64,000 nt of DNA from Flavobacteriales bacterium. Its GTDB lineage: Bacteria > Bacteroidota > Bacteroidia > Flavobacteriales > Flavobacteriaceae. A model generated the notes under the pieces. It did not search any database. It worked only from the letters and a program-made list of their open reading frames with translations, and had not been told where the DNA came from. This document shows positions 27,234 to 58,318 of the stretch, piece by piece; the first letter of the stretch is position 1; each line of letters opens with the position of its first letter. A program made the translations under genes and the position numbers. The stretch spans positions 3,532 through 67,531 of the forward strand of contig JAMONV010000006.1 of the NCBI GenBank assembly GCA_027066365.1, read 5' to 3'.

Positions 27234-27307
27234 GGCCCCGTGGCGTAACTGGATAGCGCAACTGACTACGGATCAGTAGGTTGCAGGTTCGAATCCTGCC
27301 GGGGTCA
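27234..27307 (+). tRNA. tRNA-Arg (anticodon ACG)
   Basis: Hand-folded cloverleaf with a 7-bp acceptor (one G-U), a 4-bp D stem and a 5-bp anticodon stem. The anticodon loop is CT-ACG-GA. T arm is GCAGG-TTCGAAT-CCTGC with discriminator A. CCA is not encoded. Confidence 0.95.
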
Positions 27308-27320
27308 CCTCCCCAAGGAA

Positions 27321-27352
27321 AACCCGCCTTGATGAAGGCGGGTTTTTTTTTT
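27321..27352 (+). terminator. Intrinsic terminator after tRNA-Arg
   Basis: AACCCGCCTT / AAGGCGGGTT 10-bp stem with a GATG loop, then T10. Confidence 0.8.
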
Positions 27353-45628: not shown

Positions 45629-47134
45629 TTATTCGGCCAAAGGTAGCATTCCGTGATGGAAAATCCATGCTACAAGGTATGCAACCGGTGCGATAATGAC
45701 AAATAAAGCAATGGCATACAATAAGGTAAGTTTTCCCATGCCACGCATTTTTCGAAAATCCGTGATGATTCCGATGCTTAGAAATGTGAGCATGAAGAGG
45801 AATTTCCGGAAAGAACCTTGCACCAGATGTGCGCCTTCCTTGATGGCCGGTGCAATGTCTTTGGCAAAGTAGAAAAGCGCCGTGAGTCCGAACCAAGCTA
45901 CCAGATATGCCAATACGAATTTGGGTAACCTGTGCCAAAGTTCCATTTTCGGTATTTTTTTCTTGTCGCTGCGATTTTCCACTTTACGTAACCATACGAT
46001 GGCCAACACAAAGGCCCAGATTCCGATAAAAATATCAATCCAAATTTTGGTAAGAATGGCGGCGCTGAGGATAGAGTCTTTATCCCAATTTTCTCCGGTT
46101 TGTTTGAGGTGCCGGGCATGGTGCAATTCGGCTAAAATGGCGCCGGCGGCGGCATCGGCACCGTCGGTTTTTACGGTCATTCCCATGGCGGCTCCGTTTA
46201 CGATAGGTTCGTTGGGTGCGATGCCGACATAGGCGGGTGGTAAAATAATCAATTCAAACATGGCAAAAATGATAATCAATGTGGAAACCGCTACGGGAAT
46301 AGCCGGTTTGGCGCGTATGGCGCCGGCCGTGGCAATGGAAGCCGAAACTCCGCAAATGGAGATGCCCGAGGACAAAACCGCAGCGGCATTTCGATTTAAT
46401 CCGAAATATTTCCGCCCGATGAAATAAACAATCGGCCAAAATAGTAAATAGGCAACGAATGCGGCGGCGGCACCGGCGGCCGTCAGCTCATAGGTAAAAC
46501 CGGCGGCTTTCATAGACATAATCGCCAATTTGGCACCTAGGAGCACAATGGCGGCTTTGATAAACCATTCGGGTTTTGCGGCTTCTTTCAGTTTTTCGGC
46601 CATAGTGGTGCCGGTGTTTCCGATAATCAAACCGGTTATCAAGGCCAAAATAAAAGCAAAACCTCCGCCCAATTGCAATCCCCAGGATAAATGATAAATT
46701 TCGAAGTAATTTTTCCCCTTAACCGTGGCATCCACGGCGGCAAAATGCGCCTCATGTCCGAGTATCCAAACGGTAAAGGTCAAAAAGAAAATGATTGTGA
46801 AGGCATAAATAAATTTTTTTAAATTCCATTTCATGAAAAAGGCCCCCGTCCCGGTCATTAATAAGAAAACAAAATACGAAAGCGCTAACACCGAGAGCGG
46901 GTGCCAATGACTATATGCATCGGATGATGTTTTCCATAGTTTAGACCAAGCAAAATCCGAGGTTAAATCGGTCCATTCCCAAATTTTCGGTTTGACCATC
47001 CAACCGACAGCGTCTATATCCCATATAAATAATAATCCCAATGCCACCAAAAACAATCCGAGCCAAGCGGCCCACCAGTCTTCGGTGTTTAACATACCCG
47101 AATACCATTTTTTGTTTGTCTGTTCTTGCTTCAT
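45629..47134 (-). CDS. YeiH/UPF0324-family membrane transporter (putative sulfate exporter family)
   Basis: Start set at MKQEQTNKK (47134). Polytopic, with the family-like block SSGISICGVSASIATAGAIRAKP. Confidence 0.65.
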   Translation of the reverse strand: MKQEQTNKKWYSGMLNTEDWWAAWLGLFLVALGLLFIWDIDAVGWMVKPKIWEWTDLTSDFAWSKLWKTSSDAYSHWHPLSVLALSYFVFLLMTGTGAFFMKWNLKKFIYAFTIIFFLTFTVWILGHEAHFAAVDATVKGKNYFEIYHLSWGLQLGGGFAFILALITGLIIGNTGTTMAEKLKEAAKPEWFIKAAIVLLGAKLAIMSMKAAGFTYELTAAGAAAAFVAYLLFWPIVYFIGRKYFGLNRNAAAVLSSGISICGVSASIATAGAIRAKPAIPVAVSTLIIIFAMFELIILPPAYVGIAPNEPIVNGAAMGMTVKTDGADAAAGAILAELHHARHLKQTGENWDKDSILSAAILTKIWIDIFIGIWAFVLAIVWLRKVENRSDKKKIPKMELWHRLPKFVLAYLVAWFGLTALFYFAKDIAPAIKEGAHLVQGSFRKFLFMLTFLSIGIITDFRKMRGMGKLTLLYAIALFVIIAPVAYLVAWIFHHGMLPLAE

Positions 47135-49310: not shown

Positions 49311-49440
49311 GTTAAAATCGTTAAACCGTTGAACCATGCAATCGCGGGGTGAGGCCCCGTCCCGCCCGTAATTTTCTTTGAAGTGCGAAGAACAAAACCG
49401 GAAAATCCGGTGCGGGATGGAATTGTTAAACCGTTGAACC
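49311..49440 (+). repeat. 130-nt structured intergenic element, copy A (second copy at 58166-58295)
   Basis: Hand alignment gives 127/130 identity with 58166-58295. Bounded by 16-nt direct repeats GTTAAACCGTTGAACC (49320-49335 and 49425-49440). Contains three hairpins and a closing helix (see findings). Confidence 0.85.
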
Positions 49441-49494
49441 GATTAATAGCTTCGCCGCACTTTAACCTTTTACCTTTTTCCTTAATGTTTAGAG

Positions 49495-52418: not shown

Positions 52419-54088
52419 TTACTTGAAGTATAAGTTGAGTTTGGTTACAAATGCTTTTATGGCTTGGTTATCTTTGATGATTAATTCCAATTTTTCTTTA
52501 TCGGTTAAAAATCGGACGGGAATGTTTTTTTGTTCCCGGGATTTGATACGTTTGGTTTTGAGTTCGATATAATCGTTTTGTAAACGTTCTTGAAGGAATT
52601 TCAACAGGCGGTTTGATAATTGATTGAATTCGTTTTCGCTAATGGCGCTGTCGAAACTGAAAAGGAGAATATTTCCGTTGACTTGAGGGTTGCTGTTTTG
52701 AAGCAGAGCCAATTTGCTTTTTTCATTGTTTTGCTTGAGTAAATCGAGGAAAGATTGAAAAGCTTGTTTGAAGTCCGCTTCACTGAACGGGTTATTTTTA
52801 CGTTGTCGTTGAGTGTTGCGGACGGTTTTCATGATGTTGTTTAAACTCAGGTTGCCGGATATCGGGTTTGTATTTTCCGGTTGTTGAGTTTGAGGCGGAT
52901 TTTTTTTGTTTTCGCTTGGTGTGTCGGTTTTTTGCGGTGTATTATGTGGGTGGGTGTTGGCTGGCTGTGACGGAGGTTTGTCGTTTGCAAACGATGTTTC
53001 GGAGGAAGGAGATTTAGGGGTTTGGTTTTTTTTTTTTTCGAAAGCACACCGGCTAGTTTAAAGAGCAGTATTTCGACGAGCAACCTCGGATTTTGACTTG
53101 ATTTGAATTGGATGTCGGTTTGTGAAGCCTGTTCGATGGCTTGAAGTAAATTTCGGTTATCGAATAATTGTGCATGTTCGATGTAGCGATTTTTTATTTC
53201 TTCGCCGGTTTCCACAAGTCCTGCCGTAGCCGGATTTCGAGCCATAAGCAAGTCGCGTAAATGCGTGGACAAACCGCCTATGAAGTGATGAATATCGATA
53301 CCTTTATCGACCAATTCGTTAAAATAGAGGATGAGTTTTTTTTCGTTGTTTTCGGAGATCAGGGATGTTATGTTGAAGTAGATGTCATAATCCAGGATAC
53401 CGAGATATTCGGCCACCAATTGTCGTGTGATATGTTCGTTTCCGAGAGATATGATTTTATCGAAAGCGGAGAGGGCGTCTCGCAAAGCACCGTCGGCACT
53501 GCGGGCGATGAGCATAAGGGCATCGTCATCGGCTCGGATTCCTTCCAGAGAAGCGATTTTTTTCAGGTGTTTTCGGATGTCTTCGGTGTTGATTCGTTTG
53601 AAGTCGAAGATTTGGCAGCGTGACAGGATGGTTGCGGGGATTTTGTGTTTTTCGGTGGTGGCGAGGATAAAAATCGCATGTTCGGGCGGTTCTTCCAAGG
53701 TTTTTAGGAAAGCGTTGAAAGCCGATGTGCTGAGCATGTGCACTTCGTCGATGATGTAGACTTTATATTTTCCTACATGTGGTGGGATGCGCACTTGTTC
53801 GGTGAGTTCGCGAATATCGTCCACGGAGTTGTTGGAAGCGGCGTCCAGTTCAAAAATATTAAAAGATAAATCTTGTTCGGGATTGTCGAGGTATGCTTTA
53901 TTGACTTCTTTGGCCATGATACGGGCGCAAGTGGTTTTGCCGACGCCGCGTGGTCCGGTAAACAAAAGGGCTTGTGCCAACCGGTTTTGTTCGATGGCTT
54001 TTTGTAGTATTTTGGTAACGGCCTGTTGACCGACTACTTCGTCGAATTTTTGTGGTCTGTATTTTCGTGCGGAAACGACGTAGCTCAT
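52419..54088 (-). CDS. dnaX: DNA polymerase III subunit tau; full length (~556 aa) only if a -1 shift occurs in the A13 run at 53026-53038
   Basis: N-terminal AAA+ clamp-loader motifs (ARKYRPQKF, GPRGVGKTT, IIDEVHMLS, SRC). The -1 frame from 53027 is open, encodes a P/Q/S/T-rich linker, and is continuous with the listed 137-aa ORF 52419-52832. Confidence 0.75.
52847..54088 (-). CDS. dnaX: dnaX genomic-frame product (gamma-like, ~413 aa, with a 59-aa out-of-frame K/R/T/H-rich tail)
   Basis: The listed ORF 52847-54124. The start is set at MSYVVSARKYRP (54088) because a TATCTTTG -7 box occupies 54129-54122. Confidence 0.6.
   Translation of the reverse strand: MSYVVSARKYRPQKFDEVVGQQAVTKILQKAIEQNRLAQALLFTGPRGVGKTTCARIMAKEVNKAYLDNPEQDLSFNIFELDAASNNSVDDIRELTEQVRIPPHVGKYKVYIIDEVHMLSTSAFNAFLKTLEEPPEHAIFILATTEKHKIPATILSRCQIFDFKRINTEDIRKHLKKIASLEGIRADDDALMLIARSADGALRDALSAFDKIISLGNEHITRQLVAEYLGILDYDIYFNITSLISENNEKKLILYFNELVDKGIDIHHFIGGLSTHLRDLLMARNPATAGLVETGEEIKNRYIEHAQLFDNRNLLQAIEQASQTDIQFKSSQNPRLLVEILLFKLAGVLSKKKKTKPLNLLPPKHRLQTTNLRHSQPTPTHIIHRKKPTHQAKTKKIRLKLNNRKIQTRYPAT
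53026..53038 (-). other. A13 homopolymer (slippery tract) inside dnaX
   Basis: 13 consecutive T on the plus strand, counted directly. Read as AAA AAA AAA AAA A in the dnaX frame. Confidence 0.9.
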
Positions 54089-58165: not shown

Positions 58166-58295
58166 GTCAAAATCGTTAAACCGTTGAACCATGCAATCGC
58201 GGGGTGAAGCCCCGTCCCGCCCGTAATTTTCTTTGAAGTGCGAAGAACAAAACCGGAAAATCCGGTGCGGGATGGAATTGTTAAACCGTTGAATC
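58166..58295 (+). repeat. 130-nt structured intergenic element, copy B
   Basis: 127/130 identical to 49311-49440. Mismatches are at 58168, 58208 and 58294. Starts 11 nt after the clc stop codon. Confidence 0.85.
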
Positions 58296-58318
58296 GTTAA
58301 ACCGTTAAATCGAATAAT
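58279..58318 (+). repeat. 8-nt periodic micro-repeat array (TGTTAAAC CGTTGAAT CGTTAAAC CGTTAAAT CGAATAAT)
   Basis: Five phased 8-mers overlapping the 3' end of copy B, followed by a TTCGCCGC box and a 40-nt C/T-only tract (58331-58370). Confidence 0.7.

Follow-up and report, generated by a model that had tools for sequence, protein, structure and literature searches.

The dnaX gene in a 64,000-nucleotide (nt) stretch of a Flavobacteriales bacterium genome (NCBI GenBank assembly GCA_027066365.1, contig JAMONV010000006.1, positions 3,532 to 67,531; hereafter the window) is interrupted by a run of 13 A at the point where the clamp-loader core shared by its products, tau and gamma, comes to an end. 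Comparison with other Bacteroidota indicates that the run marks a genuine, conserved recoding tract of dnaX, which in the window is unusually long and stands in an atypical, possibly spurious, frame state. The reading that we prefer, with modest confidence, is that A13 represents this organism's copy of a near-universal Bacteroidota poly-A tract, on which transcriptional slippage would yield both clamp-loader subunits.

The gene lies on the minus strand and runs from ATG 54088 through 350 codons into the run, the first A of which is position 1 of codon 351; the run is followed by CCAAACCCC. Read in frame 0, it encodes KKKK-T and continues through 59 K/R/T/H-rich codons to a TGA, giving a product of 413 amino acids (aa), while the -1 frame shows no stop over 202 codons and takes in an open reading frame (ORF) of 137 aa that had been listed separately. 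Joining the upstream part to the -1 frame gives a product of 556 aa with a message of 14 A and of 555 aa with a message of 11 A. Translation verified in all these respects what a first-pass annotation of the sequence had described, namely the position of the run, the length of the frame-0 tail, the open -1 frame and a joined product of approximately 556 aa. The third frame, to which that annotation had made no reference, ends a message of 12 A in KKKKPNP-stop. A13 is the longest homopolymer of the window, the second being a T10 at 27343; by simple arithmetic, approximately 0.01 runs of at least 13 A or T are expected in 64 kb at the base composition of the window, and the run is beyond chance. 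The coordinates of all features are collected in Table 1.

Table 1. Features of the dnaX locus, given in window coordinates.
Feature	Position	Strand	Basis
dnaX codons 1-350 (from ATG 54088): clamp-loader core (AAA+ domain, lid, domain III), present in all products	53039..54088	-	Pfam, TIGR02397, alignment with E. coli tau
A13 tract (53038-53026; T13 on the plus strand), putative slippage-prone site, AAA AAA AAA AAA A in frame 0	53026..53038	-	translation; homologous tract in 70/80 Bacteroidota
Frame-0 continuation, 59 out-of-frame codons (TKPLNLL...YPAT; 53026-52850) and TGA (52849-52847); tail of the 413-aa unslipped product	52847..53026	-	
+1-frame continuation CCA AAC CCC TAA (53025-53014); an A12 or A15 message would give KKKKPNP-stop, a 357-aa gamma-like product	53014..53025	-	
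-1-frame continuation, 202 codons and stop (52421-52419); P/Q/T/N-rich linker and tau C-terminal domain, expected from A14 and A11 messages	52419..53027	-	
137-aa ORF, predicted to be the folded tau C-terminal domain and no separate gene	52419..52832	-	shares the -1 frame; AlphaFold model

The identity of the joined protein is supported by profile and homologue comparisons. The N-terminal 354 residues carry the Pfam families PF13177, PF00004, PF22608 and PF12169 (the last over residues 221-354), and TIGR02397 (dnaX_nterm) spans residues 3-345 with an E value of 8.6e-117. The full-length DnaX model NF004046 aligns with the fused product as one continuous match (product residues 8-542, profile positions 7-548 of 567; 446 bits at a cut-off of 400), and on the strength of this match the -1 frame is truly coding. 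Alignments with intact homologues of 550-620 aa cover 99-100% of the fused product, the C-terminal part of which shares 68% identity with the same part of an intact 553-aa homologue. No Pfam family scored above its threshold in the frame-0 tail. A local copy of Pfam likewise gave no significant match to the C-terminal 201 aa, and the C-terminal ORFs of relatives that are homologous to the -1 continuation bear PF28557 as a precomputed tag only. The AlphaFold model of the 137-aa C-terminal segment has a mean predicted local distance difference test (pLDDT) value of 84, with 96-98 over residues 31-110. A structure search with this model returned no PDB match at E ≤0.001; the weak similarity seen to the DciA DUF721 domain and to DnaA domain I (probability ~0.9, E 0.2-0.4) was used neither for nor against a tau domain V fold.

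Residues 1-344 of the window protein align with residues 1-355 of E. coli tau, and extrapolation of this alignment would put the run close to residue 360 of the E. coli protein, where domain III ends. The site of the E. coli shift, which we take to be codons 428-430, would accordingly be found roughly 65 residues further downstream. The run had initially been assigned to the same place as the E. coli and Thermus thermophilus sites: it does fall at the gamma/tau boundary, but not at the exact position used by E. coli.

That the run occupies a conserved recoding site of dnaX, as the first-pass annotation had supposed, was borne out by a survey of 80 species-representative Bacteroidota dnaX loci, which were fetched by genome scan and analysed by script. 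The scan covered Bacteroidota at 39-64% identity; the closest species were not among them and were taken from a protein search. A tract of at least 9 A is present at the homologous position in 70 of the 80 loci, and since it measures exactly A10 in 64 of these 70, yet AAA makes up 68% of the lysine codons elsewhere in the surveyed dnaX genes, the data point to selection acting on the nucleotide run and not on the lysines. The tau frame among the 70 tract loci is frame 0 in 43, -1 in 24 and +1 in 3, where the split between frame 0 and -1 is uncertain by one owing to an additional upstream frame break in one locus (L040). The genera in the -1 state include Flavobacterium, Chryseobacterium, Myroides and Wenyingzhuangia, and in Flavobacterium and Chryseobacterium the frame break is conserved across species. 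Without exception (70/70), one frame continues for approximately 120-340 codons and the other two, which amount to 140 non-tau frames at two per locus, reach a stop after 14 codons at most (median 2). The base following the run is most commonly G (27/70).

The locus with the additional break belongs to Chryseobacterium ginsenosidimutans THG 15, in which the frame is lost 5' of the A10 tract and the ORF stops at codon 315. A second surveyed locus under the same species name (L030, JCM 16719) has no such break, and the lesion in L040 is probably an assembly error or specific to the strain.

Species closer to the window differ in frame state as well. In a sister species (72% aa identity; L002, L003, L091-L096) the tract reads A10 followed by TATGA at dnaX offset 1056, with tau in +1, and this sequence recurs unchanged across 8 assemblies (at least 6 samples) that differ by 2-14 single-nucleotide polymorphisms (SNPs) per 1750 nt. 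Production of tau here requires the loss of one A or the gain of two. As judged from the recurrence of the sequence, the sister species inherits its broken state and is viable with it; a ribosomal shift to -1 cannot restore tau there. A further relative, L001, has A12 and is broken in the +1 state; its tau needs A11 or A14, as does that of the window with its A13. The nearest species (78% identity) carries A11-T, read as KKKN, with tau in frame in 4 assemblies.

The proposed mechanism is that RNA polymerase slips on the run and generates messages with varying numbers of A, through which the 3' sequence would be read in three frames. Messages with A14 (one A gained) or A11 (two lost) would encode full-length tau of 556 or 555 aa, respectively, those with A12 a gamma-like protein ending in KKKKPNP-stop, and unslipped A13 messages the 413-aa protein with its 59-residue out-of-frame tail. 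The polarity is indeed inverted with respect to E. coli, with tau in the -1 frame and the short form unshifted. In contrast, the genomic-frame product, earlier viewed as a gamma-like form, is not a typical gamma, as its 59-residue tail exceeds the maximum of 14 codons in the survey, and the gamma-like protein would instead arise from A12 messages.

RNA polymerase slippage and a ribosomal -1 shift had both been offered as routes to tau, and the comparison favours the former over frameshifting of the E. coli type because the frame states are mixed and neither a hairpin nor the Rfam DnaX element is found at the locus. Since relatives have tau in +1, -1 and 0, heterogeneous transcript lengths would be the only explanation that accommodates them all, and the nearby stops in both non-tau frames fit messages with insertions as well as deletions.

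A ribosomal route would produce tau from a faithful A13 message, either by a programmed -1 shift on A_AAA_AAA or by sliding on the 13 A. Heptamers of this kind are present in phase within the run, AAG being absent, tau lies in -1 in the window as well as in 24 of the 70 surveyed relatives, and E. coli ribosomes have been reported to slide on lysine-encoding homopolymeric A (PMC4363877). However, the elements that stimulate such shifts were not recovered: folding of the downstream RNA was on a par with that of shuffled sequence (z -0.10 for 161 nt and -1.15 for the 76 nt downstream of the run), cmscan gave no match to the Rfam DnaX element up to E 10 (two unrelated weak matches only), and no Shine-Dalgarno-like (SD-like) AGGAG was seen in the bases 5' of the run. 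In E. coli, A_AAA_AAA is also much less shift-prone than A_AAA_AAG (PMC5009743). Moreover, a +1-type change is needed by three surveyed loci, by L001 and by the stable sister species, the tract is held at 10 A, far past the heptamer needed for frameshifting, and nearby stops close both alternative frames in every species, which fits messages of mixed length. We consider it improbable that a ribosomal shift is the source of tau in this organism.

A different possibility, which we regard as very remote, is that no recoding takes place at all and that dnaX is split or decaying, leaving a 413-aa gamma-like protein and a separately initiated 137-aa protein (ATG 52832), or with the tau function lost or supplied by another gene. 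Gene callers do give two ORFs here and in the broken relatives, and an ATG is present at 52832. Nevertheless, this ATG aligns to a Leu in the nearest species (INNILETARK versus NNIMKTVRN), the -1 frame is open for all of its 202 codons back into the run, and the stretch linking the run to the ATG shows conservation as coding sequence, while the rest of the gene is intact, its protein being 100% identical to that of the intact allele described below. An independent start at ATG 52832 was rejected, the ATG being non-conserved and the frame open upstream. Tau tethers the polymerase to the clamp loader within the DNA polymerase III holoenzyme, a role that a detached C-terminal domain could not fulfil.

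Whether the run truly measures 13 A bears directly on the frame state. The 413-aa product of the window falls into the same 90% cluster as an intact 555-aa protein encoded on two near-identical contigs that come from another sample, L088 (ENA ERZ27262665), which is 99.98% identical to window positions 42419-64000 (21.6 kb), and L089 (Logan SRR8439171), which is 99.95% identical over 8.6 kb. Both contigs read TCG-A11-G-CTA-ACC at the tract. Over the 8.6 kb, L089 and the window differ only in two extra A in the window and in the substitutions C/G at 53025 and A/T at 53023, all within 5 nt; L088 shows the same differences and one further SNP at 46295. In the L088 allele, frames 0, +1 and -1 stop after 202, 1 and 3 codons, and by this arrangement the A11-G allele is the canonical Thermus-type layout. 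Metagenomes of the Joint Genome Institute (JGI) scanned with exact run-flanking patterns revealed no further alleles. Of the close relatives, to which the first-pass annotation had pointed for comparison, L088, L089 and the nearest species thus retain the tract but do not share the break, all reading A11 with tau in frame. The A11 register of the nearest relatives looks ancestral, with the window carrying two extra A. On this evidence the split is not conserved in this species, and the slippage site itself appears to persist, because L088, L089 and the nearest species still carry the tract.

An error in homopolymer length, initially mentioned as the trivial alternative, is a serious one given that near-identical contigs read A11-G. 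In that case the real genome would have an in-frame, A11-G-like tract and an unbroken dnaX, and the tract would remain a slippage site of the Thermus type, with tau in frame and gamma arising from slipped messages. The differences between the window and the two contigs cluster at the run, which is the longest homopolymer of the window; the allele of the contigs is canonical, with tau in frame, early stops in the other two frames and a G after the run, and that of the window is non-canonical owing to its 59-codon tail. In other species tract and flank are invariant among strains differing by ≤0.8%, so that four differences within 5 nt are odd. On the other hand, the difference is no simple miscount, since it includes G to C and T to A substitutions, and, read in the A11 register, the window flank encodes the KKKN also found in the nearest species and L001, as is expected of a real, ancestral-like allele. 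L088 and L089 may also stem from the same reads and hence perhaps constitute a single independent observation. A noisy long-read assembly was rejected as a general cause: because 12 other homopolymers (≥8 A/T or ≥6 G/C) of the shared 21.6 kb agree and no other indels occur there, the window assembly does not appear to be generally error-prone. Taken together, we grant an assembly or sequencing artefact a considerable chance, though one short of even, and lean towards a real A13 that arose by very recent expansion.

Several points weigh against the proposal that the A13 tract in its present state feeds the production of tau by slippage. The allele of the near-identical contigs has tau in frame, and the 59-codon frame-0 tail of the window exceeds the 14-codon maximum of the 140 non-tau frames and has no counterpart in the survey, which suggests that the A13 state was not shaped by selection. 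Slippage is, in addition, deduced from work on Thermus and E. coli; it is by this analogy that we infer actual slippage in the present organism and an adequate supply of tau from it. Finally, sliding of ribosomes on long A stretches may contribute (PMC4363877).

Should both alleles be real, a more speculative and rather unlikely reading is that A11-G (tau in frame) and A13-C (tau in -1) coexist in one strain-level population (99.98% identity) as the states of a heritable hypermutable switch, in which run-length mutations reset the tau:gamma ratio between lineages. Transcriptional slippage would preserve viability in each frame state, each state would then be re-optimised by substitutions in the flank, for example the TAA arising in the L088 allele, and the three frame states seen in Bacteroidota would record such changes over the long term.

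The inverted organisation, although present in the window, is not new, as genes whose tau needs recoding at poly-A have been described before. Antonov et al. (2013; NAR 41:6514, PMC3711429) found 17 dnaX genes from 12 genera in which tau depends on poly-A recoding and lies in -1 in the DNA sequence. The tract is A10 in nine of these genes, among them those of Flavobacterium johnsoniae, F. psychrophilum and Cytophaga hutchinsonii; Capnocytophaga ochracea and Chlorobium spp. are further examples. The tracts were aligned with the A9 of Thermus, transcriptional realignment was inferred, and the poly-A dnaX point was repeated in the review by Atkins et al. (2016; PMC5009743). The window resembles these genes, the Bacteroidota examples of which belong to the same phylum, in that the tract is situated in dnaX at the end of domain III, with tau in -1, no evident stimulators and realignment presumed. 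It differs in having A13 instead of A10, in a zero frame that stays open for 59 codons instead of stopping within a few, so that only the +1 frame stops early (PNP-stop), and in a break that is not common to the 99.98%-identical strain or to the nearest species.

For the A9 of Thermus thermophilus dnaX, messages with variable numbers of A have been reported, of which those with 9+3n encode tau and those of other lengths gamma (Larsen et al. 2000, PNAS 97:1683; via PMC1088944). An A tract in dnaX at which slippage opens three frames is common to both systems, and nearby stops in the non-tau frames are a Thermus feature. In Thermus, however, tau is encoded in the template frame and slippage leads to gamma, whereas the window shows the reverse and keeps frame 0 open for 59 codons; it is the A11-G allele of L088 that has exactly the Thermus arrangement. 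The dnaX gene of E. coli also gives tau and gamma from one gene by a switch past the clamp-loader core on an A-rich lysine motif, but does so by a ribosomal -1 shift on A_AAA_AAG with an upstream SD-like sequence and a downstream stem-loop, stimulators of which none was found beside the run of the window, and with gamma as the shifted and tau as the zero-frame product.

Poly-A frameshifts in essential genes are also known from insect endosymbionts, dnaX of Blochmannia vafer and B. floridanus being an example, where transcriptional slippage is thought to rescue them; earlier work cited in the same paper found approximately 30% of the transcripts of frameshifted genes to be full length (PMC3017870). 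As in the window, full-length tau is taken to be the product of slipped messages, but these frameshifts are viewed as mutational damage in degenerating genomes and are sited in the tau-only region and not at a conserved gamma/tau switch. If A13 is a recent expansion, the window would combine the Blochmannia and the switch situations in a programmed tract with a fresh length mutation.

A real A13 would accordingly represent a natural, fresh length mutation in the programmed slippage tract of an essential gene and could help to measure how much tau is needed. For annotation, dnaX of the window should be recorded as a single gene, either recoded or with a homopolymer length in doubt, and not as a truncated gene next to a hypothetical protein. 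The same issue concerns approximately one third of the sampled Bacteroidota dnaX loci, the C-terminal part of which is as a rule annotated as an ORF of its own with unknown function. Relative to Antonov et al. (2013), the gain is small except for the phylum-wide numbers, with A10 near universal and three frame states, which form the strongest available comparative argument for polymerase slippage over ribosomal frameshifting.

A clade of Bacteroidales metagenome-assembled genomes (MAGs) from rumen or gut was observed to have no A tract in dnaX and to carry an in-frame TAG at the boundary between domain III and the linker. The TAG stands in the block CA TAG ATTGCAAGGTCGCCTCGGGCGGAGCACG, which is conserved for approximately 30 nt after the TAG, and was confirmed in 11 loci (L055:2776-2850, L063:4078-4152, L097-L104 and L106; for example L097:1705-1779). 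In L055 and L063, frame 0 stays open after the TAG for 201-254 codons up to the tau C-terminal domain. In 11/11 loci the N-terminal part and the C-terminal ORF share one frame, and of the five nucleotide differences located just behind the TAG, three are synonymous. The 19 homologues of the C-terminal part are without exception called as separate ORFs (165-241 aa). The pattern looks like programmed TAG readthrough to tau, with gamma made by termination; a limited full-text literature search retrieved no paper evidently on TAG readthrough in dnaX. Another Bacteroidales MAG (L068:4070-4180), also without an A tract, has a TAA at codon 382 of dnaX, with tau in +1 over 266 open codons and no obvious slippery motif besides CTAAAAATCC.

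Two minor features of the window were noted in addition. A direct repeat of 136 nt is present in two copies (49311-49446 and 58166-58301; 96-97% identical), followed by a related 77-nt segment rich in GTTAAACCGTTGAATCG. The copies are 8.9 kb apart, intergenic by the gene calls of L088, and flank the dnaX neighbourhood; they may represent a small mobile or regulatory repeat. Elsewhere, a transfer RNA gene (27234-27307, plus strand) is followed after 36 nt by a run of ten T (27343-27352); apart from A13, no other homopolymer of the window reaches 10, and this T10 is probably part of a terminator.

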